From Thermoplasmata archaeon (GTDB taxonomy: Archaea > Thermoplasmatota > Thermoplasmata > UBA10834): a stretch of 64,000 nt of DNA. Both the position numbers and the translations under genes were made by a program. Positions 31,462 through 47,617 of the stretch are shown one piece after another. Positions within the stretch are counted from its first letter, which is position 1, and every line of letters begins with the position of its first letter. The stretch lies in contig JACZKW010000047.1 in the NCBI GenBank assembly GCA_014859835.1, positions 68,794-132,793 of the forward strand, written 5' to 3'. Below the pieces are notes generated by a model, which did no database searches, was not told the origin of the DNA, and saw only the letters and a list, made by a program, of their open reading frames with translations.

Positions 31462-32985
31462 TCAAAAGTTTCTTACCGTCTCGACGATGGAACCGTCCTT
31501 TCTGTGGACCTTCACTTCGAGCGCAGGGCCGCCGTTCAGAGCATGTGTCCCGCACGAGTTGCAGGGGTCATAGCATCTGAATGCCATCTCAACTTTGTTG
31601 AGCAGTCCTGGCGAGACCTCGCCGTTCTTGATCAGGGCCTTGGCCGCCTGCTTCACGCTCGTGTTGATCGCAGCGTAGTTGTTGGTCGTCGCGACTATCA
31701 TGTTGATCTTAGTGCAGATGCCGTCCTTGTCCGAGGCGTAGTGGTGTATGAGCGTGCCTCTTGGGGCCTCGCAGATACCGACACCCTCCGTCGGCGGGTT
31801 GAACGCTCCTCTGATATCGTCGCTTGTGATGCTCTTGTCATTCGCGAGCTCGAGCATCCGTTCCCCGGCGTACTGCAGCTCGATCACCCTTGCCCAGTGA
31901 TACGCGAGCGTGTGGTGTACCGGACCTTTCACCCCGAGGTCCTTCATGGTCTTCGCGAGCACTTCGTACTCGGCCTGAGCCAGAGGTGTGGTGTATCCTT
32001 CGCACACGTTTATCCTGCCCAGAGGACCGACACGGTAGATGCCGCTCGATGGACCGACCTCGAAGCCCTTCCATCCGACGCTCTTCAGGTAGGGCATCTT
32101 CATGTAGGTCCATGGTTCGACATGCTCGGCGATTATGTCCAGGTACTCGCTAGGCTTGAACTTGACGACCTGTTTGCCGGTCTGGTCGACTACACGGATG
32201 TCACCATCGTAGAAGTTGCTCTTGTTGTTCTTGTCGACCATACCCATATAGTAGGTCTCGAGGTAGTATGCGTCCTGGTTCAGGATGAGGCCGAGGTAGT
32301 CCTTGTTGGCGAGCACGACATCGTGAAACAGCTTTATCGTGAACTTGCCGAACTCGACACACGACTTCGCCATCTCCACCATCTGCAGGCGCTCCTCCTC
32401 ACTGATTTGCTTGGAGACCCCGCCGGGGAGGCCGAATACTGGGTGCGTCGCCCTTCCGCCGATTATCTCCTGGACCTTCTGACCGTAAGACCTGTGCTTT
32501 ATCACTTCGGCACCGATCGGGACGCCTACCGCGTCCACTACCCCCAGCACGTTCCTCTTGCTGGCCGGGGCCGATGGTCCAAGGACGAAGTCCGGGGCCG
32601 CGAGGGCGTAGAAGTGCGCTATGTGGCTGTGGGTGTACTGTCCCATGTAGAACAGCTCCCTGAGCTTCTTGGCGGTCTCGGTCGGCTCGGCATTGAACAC
32701 TGCGTCCAAAGCCTTCGTCGATGCTATGTGGTGCGCAGCTGGACAGACACCGCAGAGCCTGTTCGTCAGCACGGGCAGCTCCTGCACGTGGCGGCCGATG
32801 CAGAATCTCTCGAATCCTCTGAGTTCCGGGACCTGGAGGTATGCGTTCGCGACGTTCCCGGCATCGTCCAGGAATATCTCGATCTTGCCATGCCCCTCCA
32901 GTCTCGTGATAGGGTCTATCGTGATTTTCTTCTCCTTCGTCTTCACCGTTGCATCGTTGATGATAGGTCCTGTCATTGCAATCAC
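31462..32985 (-). CDS. mvhA: [NiFe] hydrogenase large subunit, F420-non-reducing (Mvh/Vhu-type)
   Basis: N-terminal RLEGHG and …CGVCP… (RxCGxC). C-terminal DPCNSCGTH followed by a cleavable extension. Confidence 0.85.
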   Translation of the reverse strand: MIAMTGPIINDATVKTKEKKITIDPITRLEGHGKIEIFLDDAGNVANAYLQVPELRGFERFCIGRHVQELPVLTNRLCGVCPAAHHIASTKALDAVFNAEPTETAKKLRELFYMGQYTHSHIAHFYALAAPDFVLGPSAPASKRNVLGVVDAVGVPIGAEVIKHRSYGQKVQEIIGGRATHPVFGLPGGVSKQISEEERLQMVEMAKSCVEFGKFTIKLFHDVVLANKDYLGLILNQDAYYLETYYMGMVDKNNKSNFYDGDIRVVDQTGKQVVKFKPSEYLDIIAEHVEPWTYMKMPYLKSVGWKGFEVGPSSGIYRVGPLGRINVCEGYTTPLAQAEYEVLAKTMKDLGVKGPVHHTLAYHWARVIELQYAGERMLELANDKSITSDDIRGAFNPPTEGVGICEAPRGTLIHHYASDKDGICTKINMIVATTNNYAAINTSVKQAAKALIKNGEVSPGLLNKVEMAFRCYDPCNSCGTHALNGGPALEVKVHRKDGSIVETVRNF

Positions 32986-33995
32986 CCCTTCTTGTTGCGC
33001 TCCTTGACAATCCTTCTAAGCGGGGACTTCGGCAGCGTGAACGCGTAGAACGTGCCGAGCGGGTCCTTGACCTGCATCATCATTTCCATTATCTGCTCCT
33101 CACTTAAGGTTGACTCCGAATCTGTGATGTTCAGGAGCGAGGACACGGCACTCAACATGCTCGCGCCCTGGTCGATGACCGCCTTGGTCGGGCCCATGCA
33201 TCCCCTGCAGGGCATGTTCGCGTTGGGGCACATCGCGCCGCAACCGGCCCTGGTGGCAGGTCCTATGCAGATTATGCCTTGGTCAAGCAGGCACTTCTTG
33301 GGGTCTGGCTTGATCTCGTAGGCCTGATAGATCTTGTCTATCCTCCTGTTCTTCTCGACCCTCTCCTTCTTACACTCGTCACACAGAGTCTTGTCACTGG
33401 CGATTACAGTGCCCTTCGGGGGCAACGGCGCGCCCTTCGTCACATGCTGGACGACGGCATCGACTGCCAATGCGATCAGGTTGACCGTCGGTGGGCAGCC
33501 GGGCATGAAGTAGTCGACGTCTATCACTTCGTCGAGCGTCTTCACATCGTTGTAGAACTTCGGCAGTTCCAGCTCACCCTCGGGGACCTTGGTTATCTCC
33601 TGTGGGTAGATCCCGTTGGGGTTGTCCGTGGACTGCGTCTTCTTGTAGACGGTCTCGAAGACCTCTTCCCTGTTGGTCACATTGCCCAGGCCAGGCGTCC
33701 CACCGAAGCAGGCGCAGGATCCGAAGCTTATCATTATCACCGATTTCGCCCTGAGCAGCTTGGCCACATGCTCGTTCTCGGAGTTCCTTATGGCCCCGTT
33801 GTAGAACGATACCGTGATAGACTTGTCAGGCATTTTCTCGATATCTTCCAGCTTGCCATCGAACCCGATGGGCCAGAACACGACCTCGGCTATCGCATGT
33901 ATGTCCAGTATCTTCGCATCTATGTCCAGGAGTGCTACGTCACATCCGCCGCAGCCTGCTCCCCAGTACTGCGCGATCTTGATCTTCTCAGCCAT
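32982..33995 (-). CDS. mvhG: [NiFe] hydrogenase small subunit (Mvh/Vhu-type)
   Basis: …AQYWGAGCGGCDVAL…, …GSCACFGG…, and distal Fe-S cluster Cys motifs. Confidence 0.85.
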   Translation of the reverse strand: MAEKIKIAQYWGAGCGGCDVALLDIDAKILDIHAIAEVVFWPIGFDGKLEDIEKMPDKSITVSFYNGAIRNSENEHVAKLLRAKSVIMISFGSCACFGGTPGLGNVTNREEVFETVYKKTQSTDNPNGIYPQEITKVPEGELELPKFYNDVKTLDEVIDVDYFMPGCPPTVNLIALAVDAVVQHVTKGAPLPPKGTVIASDKTLCDECKKERVEKNRRIDKIYQAYEIKPDPKKCLLDQGIICIGPATRAGCGAMCPNANMPCRGCMGPTKAVIDQGASMLSAVSSLLNITDSESTLSEEQIMEMMMQVKDPLGTFYAFTLPKSPLRRIVKERNKKG

Positions 33996-33996
33996 T

Positions 33997-34386
33997 TCAG
34001 CTCACCTCTCCTATGTCCGATTGCTTACTGGGAACTGCCGAGTACTGAGGCGCCTGCCCTTTCATGCCGGTCTGTTCGACCAGCCTCCACTTCTTCAGGG
34101 CGATTATGTGCCTGACGATCTCCGGCTTCGCTATGCCCGTGAAGTCGTGCAGCTCGTGCACGGTCCTGGGCCCCTTCTCCATCTGTGACAGGAGCAGGTT
34201 CCTCTCCAGCTCCACCGCCGCAGCCTTCTGCACGATGAAGCTGTACCTCGCATCCGTGATCTTCTCGCCGAACACATTTCCTACCGTCGTGAGCTGCCCC
34301 TTCTTCCCAAGGAGCCACCTTATGCGCTCGCCCTCGACGGTCCTTCTAGCCGCCTCGATCCTGGCCTTTCTTCCAGTCATCGTCAT
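33997..34386 (-). CDS. Small winged-helix-like protein, homologous to the C-terminal extension of the MvhD-fusion at 37873-38706
   Basis: 129 aa (…GKKGQLTTVGNVFGEKI…LERNLLLSQMEKGPRTVHELHDFTGIAKPEIVRHIIALKKWRLVEQTGMKG…). It overlaps both mvhD upstream and mvhG downstream by 4 nt. The aligned module in the other gene reads …GKELNLVGKGNVYDNKL…FERSLILELSRTKARSVKELGEMMEVPTDKVLRHIVLLRQNSLIAMEHPEG…. Confidence 0.5.
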   Translation of the reverse strand: MTMTGRKARIEAARRTVEGERIRWLLGKKGQLTTVGNVFGEKITDARYSFIVQKAAAVELERNLLLSQMEKGPRTVHELHDFTGIAKPEIVRHIIALKKWRLVEQTGMKGQAPQYSAVPSKQSDIGEVS

Positions 34387-34838
34387 TCACCACCTCTGAT
34401 CGGAGATGGTCCAAGCTCGTTTATCGTGTTCGTGAATTCGGTCATGGTCTTCTGGAACTTCTCGCCCTCACCGGCCGAGATCCATTCCAACTGCAGTCTG
34501 TCCGTGTCATAACCGAACTGCTGTATGAGCATCTTCAGCAAGGCTATCCTCCTGCGGGTCCTGTAATTTCCACCTATGTAGTGGCAGTCCGCTGGGTGAC
34601 AGCCTGCGACCAGGATGCCGTCCGCGCCCCTCTCGAACGCCCTGAGGACGAACTCGGGGTCGACCCTGGCGGAGCACATGACCCTGATGACCCTGAAATG
34701 AGGTGGCATCTGGAGCCTGCTGACTCCTGCCAGGTCCGCTCCTGCGTACGAGCACCAGTTGCAGCAGAACACTATGATCTTCGGCTCGAATCCGTGGTCC
34801 GTCCCGGTCTTCTGGTGGTTGTGAGCATCTGAACTCAT
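34383..34838 (-). CDS. mvhD: MvhD (methyl-viologen-reducing hydrogenase delta subunit), [2Fe-2S] carrier
   Basis: …KIIVFCCNWCSYAGADLAGVSRLQMP…RVMCSARVDP…GCHPADCHYIGGN…. Confidence 0.85.
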   Translation of the reverse strand: MSSDAHNHQKTGTDHGFEPKIIVFCCNWCSYAGADLAGVSRLQMPPHFRVIRVMCSARVDPEFVLRAFERGADGILVAGCHPADCHYIGGNYRTRRRIALLKMLIQQFGYDTDRLQLEWISAGEGEKFQKTMTEFTNTINELGPSPIRGGE

Positions 34839-37800
34839 TGCTTCACCTCCTGCTTCTTCGGTTCCTCAACAAGCGCAGCATCGATCATAGCGAGGATCTG
34901 CTCATCCCTGAAACCCTTCTGGGTGAGTGCGCCAGCGGGACATGCTCCCACACAGGCGCCGCAACCCTTGCACAGACCGACATTGACATCGACGATCTTC
35001 TTGTCCTTGATCTTCTTGTTATCGATGATCTCGAGCGCCTTGTACTCGCATGTGGGCACGCAGATGCCGCAACCGTCGCAATATTGCTCGTCGACGCTCG
35101 CGACTATCCCCTCGGCTTCCAGCGTGGTCTTGGATAAGATCGTCATGGCCCTGGCGACTGCGCCAAGTGCTTGGGCGATGCTCTCATCCACGAACTTCGG
35201 CGAATGAGCTATACCGGCGAGATAGACGCCTTCGGTGGCGAAGTCGATCGGCCTCAGCTTCATGTGCGCCTCCAGGAAGAAACCTTCCTTGGTTATAGGG
35301 ACCTTCAGCATGGGCGCGAGTTCCTCGGAGCCTTCCTCTGGCCTGGTCCCAGATGCGAGGACAAGGCAGTCTGGCCTCAGAACGACCTCCTTGCCGGTGT
35401 CCTCGTCTATCAATCTCACTTCGATCTTGCCGCCCTTGTCCTCTACGACGGGCTTCTTCTCATCGTCGAACCGTATGAAGGTCACGCCCTTCTGCGCGGC
35501 CTCCTTGTAGTACTTCTCTCTGAAGCCATAGGTCCTGATGTCCCTGTAGAGCACGTACACCTTCGCGTTCGGGTCCTTGTCCTTGATCTTATTGGCCGCG
35601 GTCATAGTGCCCGTGCAACAGACGCGGGAACAGTTCGGGAACTTGTCCTCCCTGGACCCGACGCACTGTATGAACACATAGGAATCGCCCTTGACCTCTC
35701 CCTTCTTCATCTTGCCCTTGAACTCGAGGAGCGTCATCACGTTGGCGTTCTTGCCATATAGGTACTCTCCCTCGGGCTTGTACTCCCGTCCGCCGACGGC
35801 GACTACGACGACTCCATGCTCCATCTCGGAGCCGTCCGTGAGCTGCGTCTTGAAGTTGCCGACATATCCGTCGATGGTCTTTACGGTCGTTCCAAGGTGT
35901 AGCGTGATGTTCTTGTTCGCCCTGATCTCCTGATCGACCTTCTTGAGGTACTCGTCAGGGTCGTCCCCGGACGGGAGATAATGAAGCTTCCTCAGGTTTC
36001 CTCCGAGTTCCTTCTCCCTCTCCACCAGGTGCACCTTGATGCCCTGCTTGGCGAGTTCTAGAGCGGATACCATGCCGCTCACTCCACCACCTATGACGAG
36101 AGCGTCCTGGTTCACGTTAATTATGAGGTTCTCGAGCGGTTCCAGCAACCTCGACTTCGCAAGAGCCATCCGCACAAGGGCCTTGGCCTTCTTCGTGGCG
36201 GCCTTAGGCTCGTGCATGTGTATCCAAGAGCACTGGTCCCTGATGTTCGCCATCTCGAAAAGGTACGCGTTGAGGCCAGCCTCCCTGATGGTGTTCTGGA
36301 ATAGTGGTTCATGCGTCCTCGGAGTGCAGCTCGCGACGACCACTCTGTTCAGGTCGTGCTCCTTGACCTTCTCCTTGATCTTCTCCTGAGCATCGGCGGA
36401 ACACGTGTACAAGTTCTGTTCGGCGTACACCACGTTGGGCAGGGTCTTCGCGTATTCCATGACCTCTGGCACATTGACGACGCCGCCGATGTTGATGCCA
36501 CAGTGGCAGATGAACACACCTACCCTGGGCTCCTTGCCGACCACATCGATCTCCTTCGGGTACACCTTTTTGGTGATCAAGGTGTTCCTTGAGGCCGTTA
36601 TCTCTGTGCCCGCCTTGGCCGCGGCACCGCTCGCTTCGGCCACGGTCATCGGGATATCCTTCGGTGACGAGAACGCGCCGCTGACGAATATGCCCGGTCT
36701 GGATGTCTCGACAGGTGAGAACGCGCCTGTCTGGCAGAACCCGTCGTCGTTCAGCCTGAACTTCATGACACGGCTCAGATTCTCCGCGTCCGCGGGCGGT
36801 GTCAGACCGACAGCCAGCACGACCAGGCCGAACTCCTCTTCCTTCGGTTCGCCGTTCTCGACGTACTTGATCATCAGATTCTTCGTCTTCGGGTTCTCGA
36901 CGACCGCCGCTGCCCTGGATCGGACGAATCTTATGCCGTATTCGTTCTTGGCGCGGTTGTAGTAATCATCGAACTCCTTTCCGAAGGCCCTCATGTCCAT
37001 GAAGAATATCGAGGGCTTGATGTTCCCTCCGTGTTCCTTGGCTATGATCGCCTCCTTGATCGAGTACATGCAACATACGCTGGAGCAGTACTCGTTCCCG
37101 CAGTGCTCGTCCCTGGAGCCGACGCACTGTATGAACGCGATCTTCTCGGGTATGTCACCGTCCGATGGCCTGAGCACGGTCCCGAAGTACGGGCCGGTCG
37201 CGCTCAGCATCCTCTCGAACTCTATGCTCGTGACGACGTTCGGGTACACGCCATAACCATACTCTGGCTTCAGGCGCGCGTTGAACTCGTCGAAGCCGGG
37301 AGATACGATGATCGACCCGACCTTGATCTCGAAGACCTTCTCCTTCTGATCGTAATCGACTGCCTTGGCCTTGCACTCCTCTGCGCAGATCCCGCAACCT
37401 ATGCACTTCTCGGGGTCTATCGAGTAGATCAGAGGTACGGCCTGCGGGTATGCGACATAGATCGCCTTCCTGATCTTCGTTCCCTCGTTGTACTCGTCCA
37501 CGGCCTCGATCGGACATTTCTGGGCGCAGCTTCCGCAGCCAGTACACTTCGTAGGATCGACCCTGAAAGCCCTCTGCCTCACCGTGACGGTGAAGTTGCC
37601 CGCCTGGCCATCCACGATGGCGATGTCCGCGTTCGTGATCAACTGTATGTTGTGGTGCCTGCCCGCGGCGACCAGCTTGGGCGCCATTATACACATGGCG
37701 CAGTCGTTCGTCGGGAAGGTCTTATCGAGCTGGGCCATGGTGCCGCCTATGCTCGCCTTCTTCTCAACCAGATATACTCTGTATCCGGAATCGGCAAGGT

Positions 37801-37876
37801 CCAATGCGGACTGGAGACCTGATATGCCTCCTCCTACAACCATGACCGCGCCGACCTTGTCAGTAGTAGCCATCAC
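34835..37876 (-). CDS. hdrA: Long (1013 aa) tandem-fused HdrA: N-terminally truncated HdrA-like FAD/ferredoxin unit fused to a complete HdrA
   Basis: Two Rossmann motifs (VMVVGGGISGLQSALDLA and ALVIGGGVSGMVSALELA). There is an internal HdrA N-domain Cys cluster (…VGVFICHCGINIGG…ASCTPRTHEP…DQCSWIH…), multiple 4Fe-4S motifs and a C-terminal 2x[4Fe-4S]. Confidence 0.85.
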   Translation of the reverse strand: MMATTDKVGAVMVVGGGISGLQSALDLADSGYRVYLVEKKASIGGTMAQLDKTFPTNDCAMCIMAPKLVAAGRHHNIQLITNADIAIVDGQAGNFTVTVRQRAFRVDPTKCTGCGSCAQKCPIEAVDEYNEGTKIRKAIYVAYPQAVPLIYSIDPEKCIGCGICAEECKAKAVDYDQKEKVFEIKVGSIIVSPGFDEFNARLKPEYGYGVYPNVVTSIEFERMLSATGPYFGTVLRPSDGDIPEKIAFIQCVGSRDEHCGNEYCSSVCCMYSIKEAIIAKEHGGNIKPSIFFMDMRAFGKEFDDYYNRAKNEYGIRFVRSRAAAVVENPKTKNLMIKYVENGEPKEEEFGLVVLAVGLTPPADAENLSRVMKFRLNDDGFCQTGAFSPVETSRPGIFVSGAFSSPKDIPMTVAEASGAAAKAGTEITASRNTLITKKVYPKEIDVVGKEPRVGVFICHCGINIGGVVNVPEVMEYAKTLPNVVYAEQNLYTCSADAQEKIKEKVKEHDLNRVVVASCTPRTHEPLFQNTIREAGLNAYLFEMANIRDQCSWIHMHEPKAATKKAKALVRMALAKSRLLEPLENLIINVNQDALVIGGGVSGMVSALELAKQGIKVHLVEREKELGGNLRKLHYLPSGDDPDEYLKKVDQEIRANKNITLHLGTTVKTIDGYVGNFKTQLTDGSEMEHGVVVVAVGGREYKPEGEYLYGKNANVMTLLEFKGKMKKGEVKGDSYVFIQCVGSREDKFPNCSRVCCTGTMTAANKIKDKDPNAKVYVLYRDIRTYGFREKYYKEAAQKGVTFIRFDDEKKPVVEDKGGKIEVRLIDEDTGKEVVLRPDCLVLASGTRPEEGSEELAPMLKVPITKEGFFLEAHMKLRPIDFATEGVYLAGIAHSPKFVDESIAQALGAVARAMTILSKTTLEAEGIVASVDEQYCDGCGICVPTCEYKALEIIDNKKIKDKKIVDVNVGLCKGCGACVGACPAGALTQKGFRDEQILAMIDAALVEEPKKQEVKQ

Positions 37877-38706
37877 TGCTCACCTCCGATCTCTATGGTC
37901 TTGTATGTGGGGGTGAATCCCTCCGGGTGTTCCATGGCGATCAGACTGTTTTGCCTGAGCAGGACTATGTGTCTGAGCACCTTGTCCGTAGGGACCTCCA
38001 TCATCTCCCCGAGCTCCTTAACGGACCTCGCTTTGGTCCTGGACAGCTCGAGTATGAGGCTCCTCTCGAACTCATCGGAGGTGGCCTCTGTGATTATCTT
38101 CTCTATCTCCTCCGGGTCCAGCTTGTTGTCGTAGACATTGCCCTTGCCGACAAGGTTCAGTTCCTTGCCCACAAGCGCCTTCAATCTGAATGTCTCGGAC
38201 GCCATGTCCGCGGCCGCGACCCTTGACATCAACCGTTCATCCTTCTTGACCTTGTTCGGTCCCAAGGCCTTCACGGTCTCCGTGAACTCCGTCACGACCT
38301 TCGAGAACTTCTCTCCTTCTGATGCGGACACCCATTCGAGCCTGAGTCTCTCGGGCGCTATGCCACATTCTTTGAGCAGCTTCTTCATGAGGTTCACGCG
38401 CTTCTCCGTGTAGTAGTTCCCGCTGATGTAATGGCAGTCTCCTATGTGGCAGCCGCCGAGCAGGATGCCATCGGCACCAGCCTTGAAGATGTCCAACACC
38501 AGATGCGGACTGATCCTCGTAGAGCACATCACCCTGACCGGGCGTATGTTGGTCGGGTACTGGTACCTGCTCACTCCACACAGGTCCGCTCCTGCATACG
38601 AGCACCAGTTGCAGAGGAACCCGATAATCTTCGGTTCCCACTCGCTGTCATGCTTCTTCTCTAGTGCGTGCGTCTCGTGATGAGTAGTGTGATGCTTTTC
38701 CGTCAT
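37873..38706 (-). CDS. MvhD-domain protein with about 130-aa C-terminal winged-helix-like extension
   Basis: The N-terminus (…KIIGFLCNWCSYAGADLCGVSRYQYP…GCHIGDCHYISGN…) is MvhD. The C-terminal extension is homologous to ORF 33997-34386. Confidence 0.75.
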   Translation of the reverse strand: MTEKHHTTHHETHALEKKHDSEWEPKIIGFLCNWCSYAGADLCGVSRYQYPTNIRPVRVMCSTRISPHLVLDIFKAGADGILLGGCHIGDCHYISGNYYTEKRVNLMKKLLKECGIAPERLRLEWVSASEGEKFSKVVTEFTETVKALGPNKVKKDERLMSRVAAADMASETFRLKALVGKELNLVGKGNVYDNKLDPEEIEKIITEATSDEFERSLILELSRTKARSVKELGEMMEVPTDKVLRHIVLLRQNSLIAMEHPEGFTPTYKTIEIGGEQ

Positions 38707-38709
38707 CTC

Positions 38710-40590
38710 TCACACCTCCTCATCGAGAGCAGCTCTGGCTTCAGCGAGCAGCTGAGCATCAGTGTAATTCGTCATCGTTATCGCACCCTCCGGGCAGGTG
38801 GCGCCGCATGCACCGCAACCCTTGCACGCTGCGGCTATGGCCTCAACCAGGCCTTTGTCGTTCTTTCTCAACGCGCCATACGGGCAGACAGCGATACAAG
38901 TACCACAGCCAGTGCACTTGGTCTCGTCCACGACTGATGTCAGCGCCTCGGCCTGCACATACCCTTTCGCCATCGGTATGGCTGCCCTGGATGCCGCCGC
39001 GGCACCCTGTATGGCGCATTCTGAGATGTCTGCCGGGCCCTTGCAGGTCCCGCAGACATATATGCCATCGGTCGCGAAGTCCACCGGCCTGAGCTTGACA
39101 TGCGCTTCCAGGAAGAACCCTTCCTGGCCCAGCGGGACCTTGAGCAGCTTCGACAGGTCTCCAGCATCGGGCTGAGCGACCAACGGGGTCGACAATATGA
39201 CCATGTCGACCGGCATGGTCCTCTCAAGCTTGAGCGTCTCATGGAAGTAAGTCACCTTCAACTGGTTGTCTTCCATGAACACCTTGGGGAGGTTCTCGGT
39301 CGTGTATCTCACGAACTTGACCCTCTTCTCCCTGGCCTTGTTGTAGTTGAGCTCATGCTCAACTCCGTATGCCATGACGTCCCTGTTGAACACGGTGACC
39401 TCGATCTTCTCGGACGGGCCTAGCTTCACCTCTTCGGCATCGCTCTCGCCCTCGGTTCCTCGGCTGCGTCTCCTGCGCCTGCGCTCGAGGATCTCGTCCG
39501 TCGCCTTCTTCTCGACCGGGATCTTGTCGACTACGGTGCCCTGCTTCTCGGCCAGTCCTAGCATGTTCTCGTAGTTGTCGACGATATTGATCGCGTTCTT
39601 GATCGCCACATTGCAGCAGATCCTGGAGCAGTAGCTGAGCTTCTGTCCCCTTGACCCGACACATTGTACGAACGCGACGCTCTTCAGTTTCGGGAGGGTC
39701 TTCTTCTTGCACAGTATCTCGAACTCAGTCAGGGTGACCACGTTCGGGAACTGGTTGTAGCCGTACAATCCCTCGGGGACGTACTCGAGCGCGCCCGTCG
39801 CCACTATGATCGTGCCGACCTTGATCTTCTTGTCCTCGGCGCCCTTGTGGCCAATCACGACCTCGTAGTTCCCTATGAATCCTTCAACGCTCTTCAGCAT
39901 CGAGTTGGTGTATACTGTTATGTTCTTGTGTTCGCTGACCTTCTTGATCAATGGGACGATCGTCTCCTCGGCTCCCTTGTCTGTGACATAAAGGTTGTTC
40001 AGGAGCTTGACGAACCCTCCGAGTTCGCCGTCCCTCTCGACGAGGTGCACGGGGAATCCCATGTCCGCCATGGACAGGGCAGCGGACATCCCGCTGACTC
40101 CGCCACCCACGACCAGGGCGACCGACTCCACATCGACCCTGACCTCTTCCTGGGGCACGAGCAACCTTGCCCGGGAAACGCCCATCCTTATGAGGTCCTT
40201 GGCCTTGACCGTCGCCTTGTCCTTCTCCTTCATGTGGACCCAGGAACAGTGTTCACGTATGTTCACGAATGTAAACAGGTACTTGTTCAATCCAGCGGAC
40301 TCGCAGGTCGCCTGGAACAGCGGCGCGTGCGTCCTCGGAGTGCAGCTCGCCACTATGACCCTGTTCAGGTTGTGCTTCCTGATGGCCTCCCTTATGCTGC
40401 TGAGGCCGTCCTCGGCACAGGTGTACAGGTTGTCATTCGCGTAGACCACATCGGGCAAGGTCTTCGCGTACTCCGCGACGGTCGGAACATCGACGAACCC
40501 GCCTATGTTCGAACCGCAGTGGCAGACGAACACGCCTATCCTCGGCTTATCACTCTGGATCGCTTCCTTGTTCTCGGCCATCTGAATCAT
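38710..40590 (-). CDS. hdrA: HdrA-like protein (complete-HdrA unit; second half of a split double HdrA)
   Basis: …IGVFVCHCGSNIGGFVD…ASCTPRTHAP…EHCSWVH…, FAD motif ALVVGGGVSGMSAALSMA, C-terminal CTGCGTCIAVCP…CKGCGACGATCP. Contains an Arg-rich/acidic insertion ERRRRRRSRGTEGESDAEE. Confidence 0.8.
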   Translation of the reverse strand: MIQMAENKEAIQSDKPRIGVFVCHCGSNIGGFVDVPTVAEYAKTLPDVVYANDNLYTCAEDGLSSIREAIRKHNLNRVIVASCTPRTHAPLFQATCESAGLNKYLFTFVNIREHCSWVHMKEKDKATVKAKDLIRMGVSRARLLVPQEEVRVDVESVALVVGGGVSGMSAALSMADMGFPVHLVERDGELGGFVKLLNNLYVTDKGAEETIVPLIKKVSEHKNITVYTNSMLKSVEGFIGNYEVVIGHKGAEDKKIKVGTIIVATGALEYVPEGLYGYNQFPNVVTLTEFEILCKKKTLPKLKSVAFVQCVGSRGQKLSYCSRICCNVAIKNAINIVDNYENMLGLAEKQGTVVDKIPVEKKATDEILERRRRRRSRGTEGESDAEEVKLGPSEKIEVTVFNRDVMAYGVEHELNYNKAREKRVKFVRYTTENLPKVFMEDNQLKVTYFHETLKLERTMPVDMVILSTPLVAQPDAGDLSKLLKVPLGQEGFFLEAHVKLRPVDFATDGIYVCGTCKGPADISECAIQGAAAASRAAIPMAKGYVQAEALTSVVDETKCTGCGTCIAVCPYGALRKNDKGLVEAIAAACKGCGACGATCPEGAITMTNYTDAQLLAEARAALDEEV

Positions 40591-41885
40591 CCCCCTCCTG
40601 CCTGCATGAGCGCTTCGACCGCCTTCGCCGCCGCGCTCGAGCCCTGAGCGACCGACTCGGGTATGTCCGCCGGGCCGGCGCAGTATCCTGCCAGGTATAT
40701 CCCAGAGACCACGGTTCTGCCGGGTCCGAGGATCCTGTCAGAGGATTCCAGGAACCCGAATTCGTCCTGCTTCAGGCCCAGTATCTTGGCGAGCTCGGCG
40801 GTCTCCTTCTTCGGCACGAGGGTGGTCGCGAGGACGACTAGGTCGAACTCCTCGGACTGCTGCCTCCCACCGACATCGTACACCACCAATGGGTTATGGG
40901 TGTCAGGGTTCTCCTGGACCGTGGCGTCCGAGTTGATGTATCTGACGCTGTAGTCCCTCTTCGCCCGCTCGACGTATTCGTAGAATCCCTTCGAGCAGGC
41001 CCTCATATCCTTGTAGAATATCGTGGATTCGATATCGTCATAATGCTCCTTGGCGAGCATGGCCTCCTTGGTGGAGTGCATGCAACACACGGAGCAGCAG
41101 TAGGGATGCCCTACCTGCGGGTTGCGTGAGCCGACGCACTGTATGAATCCGATCTTCTTCGGCCTCTCTCCGTCAGACCGCCTCTGTATATGTCCATGTG
41201 TCGGGCCGGCCGCGTTGATCATCCTCTCATATTCCATCGCGGTGAACACGTTGGGGTATCGGCCATACCCGTACTCGGAGGACGGTGTCGGGTCCCAGAC
41301 ATCGAAACCGGTCGCGACTATTATCGAACCGACCTCGAACTCGAGTATCTGGTCCTTCATCTCATAGTTGATGGCCTCTCTCTTGCAGGCCTTCATGCAG
41401 TTACCGCACTTGCCCTTGGTCAGCATGAGACAGTTGTCCTTGTCGATGGTCATCACTCTGGGCACGGCCTGCATGAAGGGGACGTATATCGCCTTCCTCT
41501 TCGTCAGTCCCATCTCCCAGTCGCTCACGACCTTGCTCGGGCACTTCTCGAGGCATTCTCCACAGCCAGTACACTTGGACTCGTCCACGAACCTGGCCTT
41601 CTTGAGCACCTTCACCTTGAAGTCGCCCACGCTTCCTTCCACCCCGATCACTTCAGCGTAAGTTATCACGTTGGTGTTCGGGTGGCTGAAGCAGTCAGCC
41701 ATCTTCGGTGCAAGGATGCAGATCGAGCAGTCGTTCGTCGGGAATGTTTTGTCCAGTTGTGCCATTCTTCCGCCTATGCTGGGCGTCTTCTCAACCAGAT
41801 GGACAATTATTCCCTTGTCCGCGAGGTCCAGAGCCGCCTGTATTCCAGCGACTCCTCCTCCAATCACCATAACAGCCTTTTCCAT
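40587..41885 (-). CDS. hdrA: HdrA-like protein (FAD/ferredoxin unit lacking the HdrA N-domain; first half of a split double HdrA)
   Basis: VMVIGGGVAGIQAALDLA…MAQLDKTFPTNDCSIC… plus 4Fe-4S motifs. Collinear with the N-terminal halves of the 1013- and 1008-aa proteins. Confidence 0.8.
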   Translation of the reverse strand: MEKAVMVIGGGVAGIQAALDLADKGIIVHLVEKTPSIGGRMAQLDKTFPTNDCSICILAPKMADCFSHPNTNVITYAEVIGVEGSVGDFKVKVLKKARFVDESKCTGCGECLEKCPSKVVSDWEMGLTKRKAIYVPFMQAVPRVMTIDKDNCLMLTKGKCGNCMKACKREAINYEMKDQILEFEVGSIIVATGFDVWDPTPSSEYGYGRYPNVFTAMEYERMINAAGPTHGHIQRRSDGERPKKIGFIQCVGSRNPQVGHPYCCSVCCMHSTKEAMLAKEHYDDIESTIFYKDMRACSKGFYEYVERAKRDYSVRYINSDATVQENPDTHNPLVVYDVGGRQQSEEFDLVVLATTLVPKKETAELAKILGLKQDEFGFLESSDRILGPGRTVVSGIYLAGYCAGPADIPESVAQGSSAAAKAVEALMQAGGG

Positions 41886-42096: not shown

Positions 42097-42519
42097 CTAC
42101 TTCGCAATCACCTTCTTGACGTCAGCGCCCTTCTCGATCTCGGTCACCTTGACCTTGAATGGGACTTTCTTCTTCGCCTGTGCGTCGGCTCTGGCGAACC
42201 TCTGGCAGTTCGGATACGTGCACGGGGAGCACTTCTCATCCTTGCACGAGAGTTCCACGAGCAGCATCCTCTCTCTGGTGTCCTCCGGCTTCGTAACGGG
42301 CTTCCGGATCTCGAACATCTTGGACATCTTCGTCTCATATGGCTTCTTCTTGGGTTCGTACCTGGCGAACCTCTGACAGTTCGGGTACGTACACGGAGAA
42401 CACTTGGTGTCCTTGCAGGACAGTTCTATCAGCACGAACCTGTCGCCTACGTTCTTCGGCGAGTTCTCTCCCTTGCCCCCCTTCGTATCTGCCTTCTTGG
42501 TCGTGGTTTTTGGAATCAT
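42097..42519 (-). CDS. Small Lys-rich protein with duplicated C-x4-C-x2-C-x4-C motif (putative metal-binding), unknown function
   Basis: Two about 60-aa repeats, each containing L(I/V)ELSCKD(T/E)KCSPCTYPNCQRFAR. The repeats are also recognisable at DNA level with mostly synonymous differences. Confidence 0.5.
   Translation of the reverse strand: MIPKTTTKKADTKGGKGENSPKNVGDRFVLIELSCKDTKCSPCTYPNCQRFARYEPKKKPYETKMSKMFEIRKPVTKPEDTRERMLLVELSCKDEKCSPCTYPNCQRFARADAQAKKKVPFKVKVTEIEKGADVKKVIAK
42191..42425. repeat. Intragenic direct repeat (two about 65-nt copies, 42191-42255 and 42361-42425) encoding the duplicated Cys motif
   Basis: ctggcgaacctctgRcagttcggRtacgtRcacggRgaRcactt…ccttgcaSgaSagttc occurs twice, 170 nt apart. 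Confidence 0.6.
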
Positions 42520-42545: not shown

Positions 42546-44141
42546 CTACTCGAGCGAGTCAGCGATCGCGACAGTCAGGTCCTTTATCTTTATATCTATC
42601 TGCTCCTTGGGTACCAGGGTCTTGTTCTCCTGGGCGCACTTCAGATGGATGAGGCACTTGTAGCAGCCGGTCACGAGGCACTCGGCCCCCGTCTTCTTCG
42701 CCTCCTTCAGCCTCTCTACCTGCAACCTACGCGAAGTCTCGTCGCAGGTGGCCCACGCGCTCACACCACAGCATAATGCTTTGTCGCGGGTGTTCTCCAT
42801 CTCGACAATCTCGGTACCCTCCGAGGCTTTCAGGGCGTTCCTGGGCTGGTCGTAGATGTCCATGTGCCTTCCGAGCCTACACGAATCCTGGAAGGTCAGC
42901 TTCTGGGCGTTCTTCTTCAGTTTGAGCTTGCCTTCCTTGATCAGGTCGTCTATCAGCTGCGAGATGTGCACCATCTCGAAGTCCGCATCCCCCATCAGCT
43001 CTTGATAGTCGAGGTCGAAGGTGCGCAGGCATTCCGGGCACGAGAAAACGACCTTCTTGGCCCCAGAGGCCTTTATGACCTCGAGGTTCTTCTTCATCAG
43101 CTTCTGCATGGCCGCCTCGTCCCCGGTCCAGTTGAGGTCGTGCCCGCAGCAGACCTCATCGTTACTGACGACCGGGATAATACCCCCCTTATTCATTATC
43201 TTTACTGCAGCCTGGGGTATGCCAGAGAGGTCCAATTCCCGGTCCTTGAATATCGAGTCGAAGTATACCGCGCACCCCGTGAAGAAGAACACGTCACCCT
43301 TCTCGGCGATCTTGATATCATCCGTGACCCATCCCAGCCGGTTCTGCTTGAAGTCTCCGTGGGCCATGACCCGCATGACCCCTTGCATCAATCCGCCCTG
43401 GGAGCATACAGGCACGTTATCCAGCGAGCTCGCCTCGGTCCTCAAGCCCCTGATGAATCCCGAATAATCGACCTTGTACGGGCACATCGAATTGCATTGC
43501 TCACAGGTGACGCAGGTCCAGATGTCCTTGTCCGTCGAGAGCGTCTGCATCTGCCCCTCCGTAGCCTTAAGGACTATGGTCCTGGGCGCGAACTCCGTAT
43601 TGTACTTGGCGACCGGGCATACGGTCGTACACTTGCCGCACTCTACACAGTCGAACGCGCCCGTATCCTCGATCAGAGCATCTATCCTCTGCTTCAGGGT
43701 GATCGGGTCCTTGGTTGCCTTAGGGGCCTTCGGCATCGGGTTCGGCCCGAGCTTCCTGATCTGTTCTGTGAACTCCTTCATGGTCGCAGCGAACTTCTGC
43801 CCCTCTGATGCGGATATCCATTCCAATCGCATCCTGTCCTTGCCGATCCCGAGCCTGTCGAGGAGTTCCTTGACCGATTCCATGCGCTTCTCGGCCTCGA
43901 CGTTCCCGGAGATGTAATGACAATCGCCGATGTGGCATCCCGCAATCAGGATACCATCCGCGCCCAGTTCCAGTGCCCTGAGTATGAAGTATGGTTCAAC
44001 CCTCCCTGAGCACATGACCCTGATGATCCTGGCGTTGGGGGGATACTGCATCCTGCTCACGCCTGCCAGGTCCGCTCCTGCGTACGAGCACCAGTTGCAG
44101 CAGAAGGCCACTATGTTCGGCTCGAACTCCTTGCTGCTCAA
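42546..44141 (-). CDS. MvhD-HdrC-HdrB three-domain fusion (MvhD + HdrD-like)
   Basis: The N-terminus (…NIVAFCCNWCSYAGADLAGVSRMQYP…GCHIGDCHYISGN…) is MvhD. Two 4Fe-4S motifs follow (CVECGKCTTVCP and CVTCEQCNSMCP), then two CCG domains (…FFFTGCAVYF…CCGHDLNW…SCPEC… and …FQDSCRLGRH…LCCGVSAW…GCYKC…). Confidence 0.8.
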   Translation of the reverse strand: MSSKEFEPNIVAFCCNWCSYAGADLAGVSRMQYPPNARIIRVMCSGRVEPYFILRALELGADGILIAGCHIGDCHYISGNVEAEKRMESVKELLDRLGIGKDRMRLEWISASEGQKFAATMKEFTEQIRKLGPNPMPKAPKATKDPITLKQRIDALIEDTGAFDCVECGKCTTVCPVAKYNTEFAPRTIVLKATEGQMQTLSTDKDIWTCVTCEQCNSMCPYKVDYSGFIRGLRTEASSLDNVPVCSQGGLMQGVMRVMAHGDFKQNRLGWVTDDIKIAEKGDVFFFTGCAVYFDSIFKDRELDLSGIPQAAVKIMNKGGIIPVVSNDEVCCGHDLNWTGDEAAMQKLMKKNLEVIKASGAKKVVFSCPECLRTFDLDYQELMGDADFEMVHISQLIDDLIKEGKLKLKKNAQKLTFQDSCRLGRHMDIYDQPRNALKASEGTEIVEMENTRDKALCCGVSAWATCDETSRRLQVERLKEAKKTGAECLVTGCYKCLIHLKCAQENKTLVPKEQIDIKIKDLTVAIADSLE

Positions 44142-47100
44142 ACCTTCACCTCCTCGTCCTTGTCAGTCAAGAGGGCCTCGAGCATGGTCATTATCTGTTC
44201 GGACTTGAAGTGCTTGGGACTGATCGCCCGCGCACAGCATGCGACCGCGCAGGAGCCACAGCCCTTGCAGAGCGCCTCGTTAATCCTGGATTTGATCACT
44301 CCTGGGGATATCTCCTCGAGTCTCGGGGCGCCGTACTCGCACACATCCTCGCATCTGCCGCAGGCTATGCACCTCTCCTCGTTGACGACGCTCACGACCC
44401 CTTCGGCCTCTATGAACGGTTTGGACAGGACGGTGTTCACCCTTGCAGCTGCGGCCAGCGCCTGCGATATGCTCTCGTCGATCAATCTCGGTGAATGCGC
44501 GAGCCCGCAGAGGAAGATCCCGTCCGTCGCGAAATCGACCGGTCTCAGCTTCATGTGTGCCTCCAGGAAGAACCCCTCCTTGGTCAGCGGCACCTTCAGC
44601 AGCTGGGCAAGGTCCTTGTTGTCCGGGTTCGGCCGGACCGCGGCGTTTAGAACGAGATAGTCCGTTTTGATCGTCACGGTCTGCTCTATGAACTGTTCGT
44701 CGATCTCCACGACGATGTCCCCATTCGTCGCAACGACTCTGGGTGGAGATTCGGGATCGTATCGGAGGAAGATGACGCCAAGCCTGGCCGCTTCGTTGTA
44801 ATTCTCCTCTGCGAAACCGTAGGTCCTGATGTCTCTGTAGAGCACGAAGACATTCGTCTCGGGGTGCTCCTTCTTGATCTTCATCGCGTTCGCCATGGCG
44901 GTCGAACAGCATATCCTGGAGCAGTTCGGATACTCGTCGTTCCTCGAACCGACGCACTGGATTATCACGACATTGTCCGCCTTGAAATCTTTCTCGGCAA
45001 GCAGCTCTCCCAGATCCGTCTGCCTGATGACCTTCGGGTTCTTCCCGAACATGTACTCCACCGGCTCGTACTCCACACCACCGGTGGCCACGACGATGGC
45101 GCCGTGCTTGAACTTCTCTCCGCTCTTGAGAGTGGTCTCGAAATTGCCGATATATCCCTTTATCTCCGAGGCGGTCTCGTTGAGGTAGGTCTTGATGTTC
45201 TTGTGTTCTGCTATTTCCTTCTCGAGCTGTTCGAAAGTCTTCTGGGGGTCGACTCCCGAGAGTGTATGATGTATCCGTCTCAGATGCCCACCCAGCTGCT
45301 TCTCCTTTTCCACCAGGTGCACCTCGAAGCCGGAATTCGCTATCTCTAGGGTCGCGGTCATGCCGCTCAGACCTCCGCCGATGACCAGCGCTGACGGTGT
45401 GACGGGTATCTTGGGTTGAGGTAGAGGCTCAAGCATCGCCGCTTTCGCTACCGCCATGCGCACAAGGTCCTTCGCTTTCGCGGTCGCTTTCACCGGTTCC
45501 AACCGGTGCACCCAAGAGCACTGGTCCCTGATGTTGGCCATCTCGAAAAGGTACTTGTTCAGCCCCGCCTCCTTGACCGTGTTCTGGAACAGCGGCTCGT
45601 GAGTCCTCGGCGTACAGCTCGCGACGACCACCCTGTTCAGGTCGTGTTTCTCGACGACCTCCTTGATCTTCTTCTGAGTGTCCTGTGAGCATGTGTAAAG
45701 GTTACGTTCGACGTAGACCACGCCAGGCAAGGTCGCTGCATATTCGACTACCTCCGGCACGTTCACCACAGAACCGATGTTTATGCCGCAATGGCAGACG
45801 AACACGCCTATCCTGGGTTCCTTGCCGGAGACATCCCTCTCCTGTGGATACTCCTTCTTGGTGACCAGCTTGCCCCGCTCATCCGACAGTAACGCTGCCA
45901 CCTTCCCCGCAGCGCCGCTGGCTTGAGCGATCGAGTCTGGAATGTCCTTCGGGCCAGAGAACGCGCCGCACACGAATATCCCGGGGACGGATGTCGACAC
46001 AGGGGTCAGATCGTCAGTCTCGCAGAACCCGAACTTGTTCAGGTTGAGTCCGAATATCTTTGCCATATTGCCAGTGGATTCCGGGGGCCTCGCGCCCGCA
46101 GAGAGCACGACCAGGTCGAACACCTCCTCTCGAATGTCCGGACCCTCGAGATAGCTGAGCATGAGGTTGTTCGTCTCCGGGTCCTCCTGGACCTTTGATA
46201 TACGGTTGTTCCTCAGGACCCTCACGCCGTATTCGTTCTCCGCTCTCATCAGGTATTCCTCGAACTCCTTGCCGAAAGCCCGAGTGTCCATGAAGAATAT
46301 CGCAGTGTCCAGCCCCTGGACATGCTCCTTGCCTATGACCGCCTGCTTCAGGGCGGCCATGCAACAGTATGATGAACAATAGGTATTGGATGTCTGCGCG
46401 TCCCTCGAGCCGACACACTGTATGAACGCGATCTTCTTGGGCACATCCCCATCCGAAGGCCGGATCACGTGTCCCTCCGTCGGACCAGACGCGCTGAGCA
46501 TCCTCTCGAACTCTATGTTCGAGAGCACATTATGGAATACGCCGTGCCCGTACTCGATCTTCTTCGACGAATCGTAGACGTCGTATCCGGGGCTCAGGAT
46601 GATGGCGCCCACCTCGATCATCTCTTCCTTGTCCAGCTCATCGGAGTAATTGATCGCCTTCGCCTCGCAGAATCTGTCACAGACCCCGCATCCGATGCAC
46701 AGTCCCTTGTCTATAGTGTATACTAAGGGCACAGCCTGCGGGAACGGGACATAGATCGCCTTTGCCGGTGCCAAGTCCCTATCAAAGGCGTTGGCCCCTT
46801 CGATCGGGCAGTGTTCGGCGCACACTCCGCAGCCAGTGCACTTCTCTTCGATTATGAACCTGGACCTACGCGATAGCTTGACCTTGAAATCACCCGTTTT
46901 GCCCTCGATGCCCTTGAGCTCCGCGTTGGTGATCATCGTGATGTTCTCATGCCTCCCTGTCGCGACCAGCTTCGGGGAGATGATGCACATCGAGCAATCG
47001 TTCGTGGGGAAGGTCTTGTCCAACTGTGCCATCGTGCCGCCTATGCTGAGCCCGGATTCGAGTATGTACACCTTGAACCCGGAATCGGCCAGATCCAGCG

Positions 47101-47164
47101 CCGCCTGCATCCCTGCGGGACCGCCTCCGACCACGAGCACGGCCCCAACTTTTCTATCTGCCAT
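44138..47164 (-). CDS. hdrA: Long (1008 aa) tandem-fused HdrA, paralog of 34835-37876
   Basis: VLVVGGGPAGMQAALDLA at the N-terminus. An internal HdrA N-domain (…IGVFVCHCGINIGSVVN…ASCTPRTHEP…DQCSWVH…) and a second FAD motif ALVIGGGLSGMTATLEIA. Collinear with the other long HdrA. Confidence 0.85.
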   Translation of the reverse strand: MADRKVGAVLVVGGGPAGMQAALDLADSGFKVYILESGLSIGGTMAQLDKTFPTNDCSMCIISPKLVATGRHENITMITNAELKGIEGKTGDFKVKLSRRSRFIIEEKCTGCGVCAEHCPIEGANAFDRDLAPAKAIYVPFPQAVPLVYTIDKGLCIGCGVCDRFCEAKAINYSDELDKEEMIEVGAIILSPGYDVYDSSKKIEYGHGVFHNVLSNIEFERMLSASGPTEGHVIRPSDGDVPKKIAFIQCVGSRDAQTSNTYCSSYCCMAALKQAVIGKEHVQGLDTAIFFMDTRAFGKEFEEYLMRAENEYGVRVLRNNRISKVQEDPETNNLMLSYLEGPDIREEVFDLVVLSAGARPPESTGNMAKIFGLNLNKFGFCETDDLTPVSTSVPGIFVCGAFSGPKDIPDSIAQASGAAGKVAALLSDERGKLVTKKEYPQERDVSGKEPRIGVFVCHCGINIGSVVNVPEVVEYAATLPGVVYVERNLYTCSQDTQKKIKEVVEKHDLNRVVVASCTPRTHEPLFQNTVKEAGLNKYLFEMANIRDQCSWVHRLEPVKATAKAKDLVRMAVAKAAMLEPLPQPKIPVTPSALVIGGGLSGMTATLEIANSGFEVHLVEKEKQLGGHLRRIHHTLSGVDPQKTFEQLEKEIAEHKNIKTYLNETASEIKGYIGNFETTLKSGEKFKHGAIVVATGGVEYEPVEYMFGKNPKVIRQTDLGELLAEKDFKADNVVIIQCVGSRNDEYPNCSRICCSTAMANAMKIKKEHPETNVFVLYRDIRTYGFAEENYNEAARLGVIFLRYDPESPPRVVATNGDIVVEIDEQFIEQTVTIKTDYLVLNAAVRPNPDNKDLAQLLKVPLTKEGFFLEAHMKLRPVDFATDGIFLCGLAHSPRLIDESISQALAAAARVNTVLSKPFIEAEGVVSVVNEERCIACGRCEDVCEYGAPRLEEISPGVIKSRINEALCKGCGSCAVACCARAISPKHFKSEQIMTMLEALLTDKDEEVKV

Positions 47165-47165
47165 G

Positions 47166-47615
47166 TCAAACGTCCTCCTCGCACAACGGTCCGAGCCTCT
47201 CCAGCTCTGCCACCATCTTCTTTACGACGTCTGCGAACTTCTGTCCCTCTGAGCCAGCGATCCATTCTATTCGGAATCTCTGGTCCTCTATGCCCGCGTC
47301 TTCGAGGAATTCTGACAGGAAGTCTCCTCTCATCGCCGCCTTCTCGTTGCCGTTTATGTAATGGCAATCCGCTGGATGGCATCCTGCGACGATCACACCG
47401 TCCGCACCCAGCTCGAATGCCTTCAGCACGAAGGCCGGATCGACTCTTCCCGAGCACATGACTCTGATTATCCTGACATTTGACGGATACTGCAATCTGC
47501 TCACGCCCGCCAGGTCAGCTCCTGCATACGAGCACCAGTTGCAGCAGAATGCGATGATCTTGGGCTCGTGAGTCTTCTCTGTGCTCTGAGCATCCTTGGT
47601 GACTGGTCCGCTCAT
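47166..47615 (-). CDS. mvhD: MvhD; track ORF extends upstream to 47951 across the hdrB 3' end, but an ATG at 47615 with a GGGGGG SD follows the hdrB stop
   Basis: …KIIAFCCNWCSYAGADLAGVSRLQYP…RVMCSGRVDP…GCHPADCHYINGN…. Confidence 0.8.
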   Translation of the reverse strand: MSGPVTKDAQSTEKTHEPKIIAFCCNWCSYAGADLAGVSRLQYPSNVRIIRVMCSGRVDPAFVLKAFELGADGVIVAGCHPADCHYINGNEKAAMRGDFLSEFLEDAGIEDQRFRIEWIAGSEGQKFADVVKKMVAELERLGPLCEEDV

Positions 47616-47617
47616 GT

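Follow-up and report, generated by a model that had tools for sequence, protein, structure and literature searches.

A winged-helix module of MvhD-type adaptors, fused and free-standing, in a Thermoplasmata hydrogenase/heterodisulfide reductase cluster

A gene cluster for hydrogenase and heterodisulfide reductase (Hdr) subunits in a Thermoplasmata archaeon (assembly GCA_014859835.1, contig JACZKW010000047.1, positions 68,794 to 132,793; this 64,000-nucleotide stretch is hereafter the window) poses a question of function. A 129-residue protein resembling a transcriptional regulator is encoded between mvhD, the gene for an electron-transfer adaptor, and the hydrogenase small-subunit gene mvhG, and a module of the same kind forms the C-terminal extension of a second, 277-residue MvhD protein. 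Does this module read DNA, or does it hold parts of the enzyme together? The original prediction, made from the nucleotide sequence alone, named both a redox-sensing regulator and a novel structural subunit. Our analysis favors the latter: we put at roughly two in three the probability that the module is a structural protein-docking piece rather than a gene regulator, with the free-standing copy serving as a docking subunit in trans.

Two copies of one module

Both genes lie on the minus strand where the original prediction placed them, the free-standing module at 33997-34386 (129 residues, or possibly 127 if the second ATG is used) and the fusion at 37873-38706, and the quoted peptides agree with the translations. 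A single pairwise BLASTP comparison bears out the proposed homology between the 129-residue protein and the C-terminal extension of the fusion: one ungapped alignment joins residues 8-118 to residues 161-271, with 32 of 111 positions identical (29%), 51% positives, and E = 4e-15. The shared module is therefore real and the match far beyond chance. Within the fusion, the MvhD domain occupies residues 27-149 (38260-38628; PF02662, 182 bits) and the module, as delimited by BLASTP and AlphaFold, residues ~157-271 (37894-38238). The plain MvhD of 151 residues directly upstream of the free-standing gene (34383-34838) scores 187 bits against the same family, for which the gathering cutoff is 22.3.

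The MvhD domains themselves are of a known kind. They are close homologues of MvhD in the Mvh-Hdr, Fdh-Hdr, and Elp-Hdr complexes of methanogens (5odc_D, 7bkb_F, 8rvu_F, and 9sw2_D), reaching E = 1e-55 to 5odc_D and, relative to 5odh_D, 60% identity, a template modelling (TM) score of 0.94, and a root-mean-square deviation of 1.0. The PDB search matched six sequences of solved MvhD, all of them 129-141 residues long and without the module.

A winged-helix fold, as originally proposed, is supported for the 129-residue protein by a match to the ArsR-type Pfam family HTH_5, by the AlphaFold model, and by weak Foldseek matches. The model, made with 30 homologues, places a winged helix at residues 45-117 (34036-34254) with a predicted local distance difference test score (pLDDT) above 90, comprising helices at 45-71, 76-83, and 87-99 and a hairpin at 103-117. 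Foldseek searches of the PDB with this model returned generic winged-helix proteins (NolR, SmtB, BigR, CzrA, and Z-alpha; best E = 9e-4), and sequence searches of the PDB gave marginal ArsR matches and none beyond generic winged helix-turn-helix proteins. The N-terminal 44 residues (34255-34386), which carry the conserved motif ERIRWLLGK...GNVFGEK, are helical but of low confidence (pLDDT 55-65) when the protein is modelled alone. The 277-residue protein, modelled with 50 homologues, behaves differently: overall pLDDT is 93.3, the predicted TM score 0.87, and pLDDT in the module 97-98, with helices at 157-170 and 173-187 followed by the winged helix at 198-270. The fusion is thus modelled as a rigid two-domain body, and since the N-terminal helical segment is uncertain alone and confident beside MvhD, it is predicted to fold against MvhD.

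No dedicated model for the module exists in Pfam or NCBIfam, and the only Pfam match in the 277-residue protein is the MvhD/FlpD domain, with no match to a Pfam helix-turn-helix family. Nor did either database match the module to a known, unrelated enzymatic domain, and that identity was rejected. A sulfur carrier like DsrC/TusE was likewise rejected, since the module has no conserved cysteines.

Family architecture and the double-HdrA cassette

Word-indexed homologue searches with single sequences reached only relatives of at least 70% identity, and it was a profile search that revealed the family. Across 1.84 billion representative proteins, the profile matched 279 clusters (at 50% identity) with E ≤ 1e-3, of which 146 had E ≤ 1e-10. 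We parsed the best 148 matches with hidden Markov models built from the window: 77 are MvhD-module fusions, 68 contain the module only, and three contain two modules. The fusions include HdrA-MvhD-module proteins (P0137 and P0187) and ferredoxin-MvhD-module proteins. The three proteins with two modules (P0152, 756 residues; P0167, 516 residues; P0175, 364 residues) lack an MvhD domain, and the C-terminal end of P0152 resembles a 4Fe-4S ferredoxin.

Some entries that consist of the module only, or are short at the N-terminus, are artefacts of gene calling that arise from an in-frame TGA or a frameshift within fused genes. In Syntrophobacterales and other Thermodesulfobacteriota (L045-L048, L041, L006/L007, and L010), a TGA interrupts mvhD at about codon 72-73, with a further TGA four codons into the MvhD match in L046 and L047. 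These codons probably specify selenocysteine. Gene callers split or shorten such genes, which yields many database "proteins" of 160-173 and 210-220 residues.

Across 130 members, conservation peaks in the N-terminal segment (R19, R21, G25, K26, and G34-N-V-Y-G-E39), and extends to E57, R60, and I63 of the first helix of the winged helix, the hydrophobic core, and P111 and Y113 of the wing. The exposed positions of the recognition helix carry merely 0.85-1.4 bits, and the family alignment has no invariant histidine or cysteine column. The median isoelectric point (pI) of the family is 6.4, and the fused paralogue in the window is acidic (pI 5.5).

To place the module in its genomic context, we scanned genomes, one for each GTDB species, for the motif [EDT][EKR]GNVYGEK, taken from the narrower alignment A3, and parsed the loci in six frames. 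Because the search pattern is that motif, the survey is biased toward GNVYGEK-type members and misses Geobacter proteins and free-standing proteins of the GNVFGE type. It recovered 42 loci in as many genomes, with 46 modules in total and more than 10 phyla represented, spanning archaea (Bathyarchaeia, Hadarchaeota, Thermoplasmata, Methanomassiliicoccales, Odinarchaeota, and Archaeoglobi) and bacteria (among others, Chloroflexi/Anaerolineae, Bacillota, Thermodesulfobacteriota/Syntrophobacterales, and WOR-3). Nearly all 46 modules are encoded in frame just after an MvhD domain. Taken with the 77 fusions among the best 148 representatives, this makes fusion the dominant state of the family and substantiates the functional partnership with MvhD that the original prediction had drawn from one fused and one coupled gene.

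The survey also uncovered an association that the original prediction overlooked. A double (type II) HdrA of ~1000 residues begins within 250 nucleotides downstream of 37 of the 46 modules. Thirty of these double HdrA genes are complete in their locus, and a plain MvhD comes next after 26 of them, often followed by hdrCB and mvhGA. Only one surveyed locus has the module behind the second MvhD. The strongest genomic association of the module is therefore with double HdrA and not with hydrogenase. The window carries this recurrent cassette, in that the 277-residue fusion gene overlaps the start of a gene for a 1013-residue double HdrA (34835-37876, minus strand) with two thioredoxin-reductase-like flavin adenine dinucleotide domains, which is followed by the 151-residue MvhD, and adds to it the free-standing module. 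The solved MvhD complexes of methanogens, in contrast, use single (type I) HdrA dimers.

Several loci depart from the common arrangement. In a Chloroflexi locus (L022, 7914-7989) a TGA ends MvhD and the module continues in the same frame, and in an Anaerolineae locus (L032, 7842-7998) the frame changes between mvhD and the module; each may be an independent fission or a sequencing error, and in both the module still lies upstream of double HdrA. In Archaeoglobi (L043 and L049-L052) the module precedes double HdrA with no MvhD, or with just a piece of one (profile positions ~48-117), which suggests that the module can be retained where the [2Fe-2S] domain is not intact. In Desulforhabdus (L006/L007) metV and metF directly follow the complete cassette, and in a Thermodesulfobacteriota metagenome-assembled genome (MAG) from a tar biofilm (L041) there is only a methylene-tetrahydrofolate reductase gene, upstream of the cassette and on the opposite strand. 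Such neighborhoods point to a complex of the MetFV-Hdr type rather than one linked to hydrogenase. One Syntrophobacteraceae MAG (L009/L044, 1529-1849) contains an orphan module gene with no MvhD or HdrA nearby, departing from the cassette pattern; it adjoins an integrase-like open reading frame and genes for a tautomerase and an ABC transporter.

The free-standing gene of the window is embedded in its operon as originally described. Its ATG overlaps the TGA of mvhD (gaATGAcgATG), and a single base separates its own TGA from the mvhG ATG; just upstream of its start is GAGGTG, which resembles a Shine-Dalgarno sequence, and its last codons contain the ribosome-binding site of mvhG. More than 140 homologue clusters share its length at 70-98% identity. 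The closest relatives with an organism name all come from MAGs assigned to Thermoplasmata, Thermoplasmatota, Methanobacteriota, or Euryarchaeota, and the named ones are annotated as "ArsR family transcriptional regulator," other helix-turn-helix regulators, or "hypothetical protein." The order double hdrA, mvhD, free module, mvhG recurs in GCA_018818785.1 (98% identity), in the complete genome CP070732.1 (73%), and in contig L055 (~44%). A neighbor-joining tree and BLAST ranking group the window protein with five other module-only representatives (P0132, P0133, P0134, P0136, and P0142). Because the free-standing proteins form their own clade and keep their gene slot down to ~44% identity, the split is old and stable and not a recent break or an assembly artefact.

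BamF as a precedent for docking

One reported structure bears on what such a module does. In an April 2026 preprint on the cryogenic electron microscopy structure of a class II benzoyl-CoA reductase (10.64898/2026.04.10.717634), one sentence says that the winged helix of BamF "interfaces with BamI"; BamE is described as a fused HdrA dimer, and BamF as having a selenocysteine at position 19. The coordinates (29QY, 29RC, and 29RN) are yet to be released. This sentence is the only mention we found in the literature of a winged helix-turn-helix on an MvhD-type adaptor. BamF of Geobacter metallireducens (BamBCDEFGHI) combines an MvhD domain with a winged-helix extension of more than 100 residues, like the 277-residue protein, and both have a double HdrA as neighbor or partner.

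We obtained a BamF-type sequence through the reverse quantitative PCR primer for Geotalea daltonii bamF2 given in a paper supplement, which matched metagenome contig L057 exactly. The gene order of this contig is that of bamE-F-G-H-I: a double HdrA, an MvhD with a 119-residue extension, a NuoE-like 2Fe-2S protein, a NuoF-like protein, and a Fer2_4/4Fe-4S protein. The BamE-like double HdrA is 46% identical to the 1013-residue HdrA of the window, and the BamF-type gene has an in-frame TGA at codon 19, which probably specifies selenocysteine. Three comparisons connect its extension with the module. The broad profile A2, which contains both window copies, matched it in hmmsearch with 36.2 bits (E = 2e-13, single target); hhalign aligned it to the module family over 101 columns (95.8% probability, E = 7e-9), with a seven-residue deletion that removes GNV while the RLR motif and a tyrosine are kept; and BLASTP of the 277-residue protein against the whole BamF-type protein was collinear through the extension (35% identity over 255 columns). 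The BamF-type extension is therefore a divergent member of the module family and provides a structural precedent for a protein-docking role. Gene neighborhoods were also searched for BamF, and the candidates (P0141, P0180, P0161, and L041) proved to be standard or MetF-linked cassettes rather than bam clusters.

The two systems differ in several respects. The BamF-type extension lacks both the GNVYGEK motif and the wing proline; bamF follows the double HdrA gene, whereas the window fusion precedes it; and bamF is succeeded by the NuoE/F/G-like bamGHI, which have no equivalent in the window, where the partners are the MvhAG hydrogenase and HdrBC-type proteins. The MvhD of the window has cysteine where BamF has selenocysteine, and the BamF extension is never a separate gene, unlike the free-standing copy.

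We propose on these grounds that the module is an accessory to the MvhD-type [2Fe-2S] adaptors of double HdrA flavoproteins, normally present as a C-terminal fusion encoded directly upstream of double HdrA, as in the 277-residue protein. Its first part, a helical segment of ~45 residues with the pattern R-x-R-W-L-x-G-K...G-N-V-Y/F-G-E-K, would pack onto MvhD. Its second part, the winged helix with a conserved E..R in the first helix and a G-x-x-P-x-Y wing tip, would by homology to BamF offer a protein-protein docking surface and would not read DNA; in BamF this domain may hold the neighboring electron-input or partner subunit against the MvhD/HdrA core. In this Thermoplasmata lineage, a second, old copy is a separate gene, translationally coupled between the second mvhD and mvhG, through which the hydrogenase-proximal MvhD would receive the same module in trans. 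We infer that the free protein binds the 151-residue MvhD through the interface used in the fusion and helps to bring MvhAG, or a second HdrA unit, into place within a complex of hydrogenase and double HdrA. Candidate contact surfaces for the winged helix are MvhG/A, the second half of the double HdrA, and the neighboring split double HdrA.

A number of observations weigh against this proposal. Its functional core is carried over from a BamF extension that is divergent and lacks GNVYGEK; contig L057 encodes a metagenomic protein of the BamF type, and the structure is of a different protein, that of G. metallireducens; nothing in the window cluster corresponds to BamI; and even at E < 10 the BamF-type extension escaped a narrower profile weighted toward Thermoplasmata (A1). 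The free-standing protein itself keeps regulator-like traits: HTH_5 matches residues 62-104 with 26.8 bits, above the gathering score of 22, and its recognition helix retains the ArsR-like pattern V-R-H-I-x-x-L. With a pI of ~10 its charge would suit nucleic-acid binding, and its close Thermoplasmata relatives are uniformly basic (pI 8.8-10.3, net charge +2 to +9 across 120 homologues). The basic charge of this branch may thus leave room for nucleic-acid binding or a dual role.

Among the alternatives, the one with most weight is that the 129-residue protein acts as an ordinary DNA-binding repressor of the ArsR/SmtB type and controls its own mvh/hdr operon, its likeness to the MvhD extension reflecting shared winged-helix ancestry only. 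ArsR/SmtB proteins are its best sequence and fold matches in the PDB, and share with the module the helix-turn-helix, the beta-hairpin wing (SmtB, 8qkf; NolR, 4omz; CzrA, 1r1u), and a recognition-helix pattern like V-S-x-H-L-x-x-L; the database names of its homologues and the basic charge point the same way. Against this, the 111-residue homology spans the N-terminal part outside the helix-turn-helix, which ArsR proteins lack and which is the most conserved region of the family. The NCBIfam model HTH_metalloreg (NF033788) gave 21.2 bits for the free-standing and 18.4 bits for the fused module, far short of its cutoff of 55; the AlphaFold models show no helix after the wing, only a short unstructured tail past residue 117 (free) or 270 (fused), and so lack the alpha-5 dimerization helix; and cysteine, hence a sensing thiol, is absent from 118 of 120 free-standing homologues. 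Together these argue against an ArsR-type thiol or metal sensor. Moreover, P0134, of the same clade and in the same genomic slot, is acidic (pI 5.3), showing that the basic charge is not conserved across the clade. Most family members are covalently joined to an iron-sulfur protein, unlike ArsR/SmtB, and the gene is coupled inside a structural operon, between genes for subunits that touch each other in solved Mvh-Hdr complexes. We consider an ordinary repressor unlikely.

A dual role, in which the free module docks on MvhD and is released to bind DNA as a sequestered regulator that couples the state of the hydrogenase/Hdr complex to transcription, appears quite unlikely. The strong basic shift of the Thermoplasmata branch relative to the acidic fused paralogue would fit it, as would the HTH_5 signature that the free copy keeps and the fused copy lacks; the acidic P0134 and the lack of apparent sensing residues do not. 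A more specific version, in which this basic branch is a genuine DNA-binding factor held on MvhD/MvhAG and released by the redox or H2 state while the fused module is purely structural, is a long shot, although if true an electron-bifurcating enzyme would directly gate transcription of its own operon. That the free-standing gene is a functionless remnant of a broken fusion or an assembly or frameshift artefact, as some module-only entries are (e.g., from selenocysteine TGA codons or frameshifts, as in L010), is highly improbable, given a complete upstream MvhD with a proper stop overlapping the module ATG, the GAGGTG, the constant length across the homologue clusters, and the persistence of the split at ~44% identity.

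Of the two functions originally suggested, the structural subunit thus fits much better, because the best-conserved residues lie outside the recognition helix and the fused model is rigid. The redox-sensing regulator fits poorly with this conservation, the lack of cysteines, the missed ArsR model, and the BamF precedent.

The surrounding cluster and what the module means

The two modules belong to one long hydrogenase/heterodisulfide reductase cluster on the minus strand at 30.9-51.2 kb of the window. In the order of transcription it begins with hdrA (697 residues), hdrC, hdrB, an MvhD domain, and a double HdrA of 1008 residues (44138-47164). The MvhD domain, the fourth of the cluster and without a module, lies at 47190-47558 inside an open reading frame of 261 residues (47166-47951) that overlaps hdrB (47618-48535) by ~330 nucleotides. 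Because of this overlap, and because MvhD is confined to residues 132-254, the true start of that frame is probably internal.

There follow an MvhD-HdrC/HdrB fusion of 531 residues (42546-44141), an open reading frame of 140 residues, and a split double HdrA of 432 and 626 residues (38710-41885). In the 531-residue protein the third MvhD domain (residues 10-132), which has no module, is joined to a 4Fe-4S dicluster domain of the HdrC type and to CCG domains of the HdrB type, a fusion that also occurs in Bathyarchaeia (L012, L035, and L036). The 140-residue frame (42097-42519), between this gene and the split HdrA, encodes two copies of the four-cysteine motif (L/V)(I/V)ELSCKD(T/E)KCSPCTYPNCQRFAR. 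Its sole Pfam match is weak ("Putative Fe-S cluster," E = 0.003), and its position is conserved in L001 and a Methanomassiliicoccales MAG (L016). The two genes of the split HdrA overlap by four nucleotides, and such a pair stands directly upstream of the MvhD-module fusion in many other genomes (e.g., L011, L017, and L019-L021). The cluster ends with the fusion, the 1013-residue HdrA, the 151-residue MvhD, the free-standing module, MvhG (32982-33995; PF01058) and MvhA (31462-32985; PF00374), the [NiFe] hydrogenase small and large subunits, and a HycI-type protease.

As to novelty, which the original prediction had claimed, the family is widespread and essentially undescribed, though a winged helix on an MvhD-type adaptor had been reported once. 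HdrA2 or type Ia HdrA, with MvhD fused at the C-terminus, and type II double HdrA are known from the same enzyme neighborhood (PMC12054007; PMC9012536). Term searches of papers on HdrA diversity and fusions, including these two, returned nothing on a winged helix or on an extension at the C-terminus of MvhD. What is new is the broad, undescribed distribution of the module and its unusual stand-alone form; the extended MvhD adaptor of the BamF type is already known.

Double HdrA enzymes occur widely among uncultured archaea and anaerobic bacteria, and their biochemistry has not yet been done according to a 2025 survey (PMC12054007). The module marks one of the two MvhD adaptors in their recurrent cassette of MvhD-module, double HdrA, and MvhD, and the comparison with BamF links the module to the one structure known to show an equivalent domain. 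Re-annotation is probably due for many database entries that carry the name "ArsR family transcriptional regulator" or "hypothetical protein." The free-standing copy provides a naturally split system for experiments that supply the module or leave it out. If the docking role holds, the winged-helix surface would determine how electron-input modules are matched to the two halves of the double HdrA.

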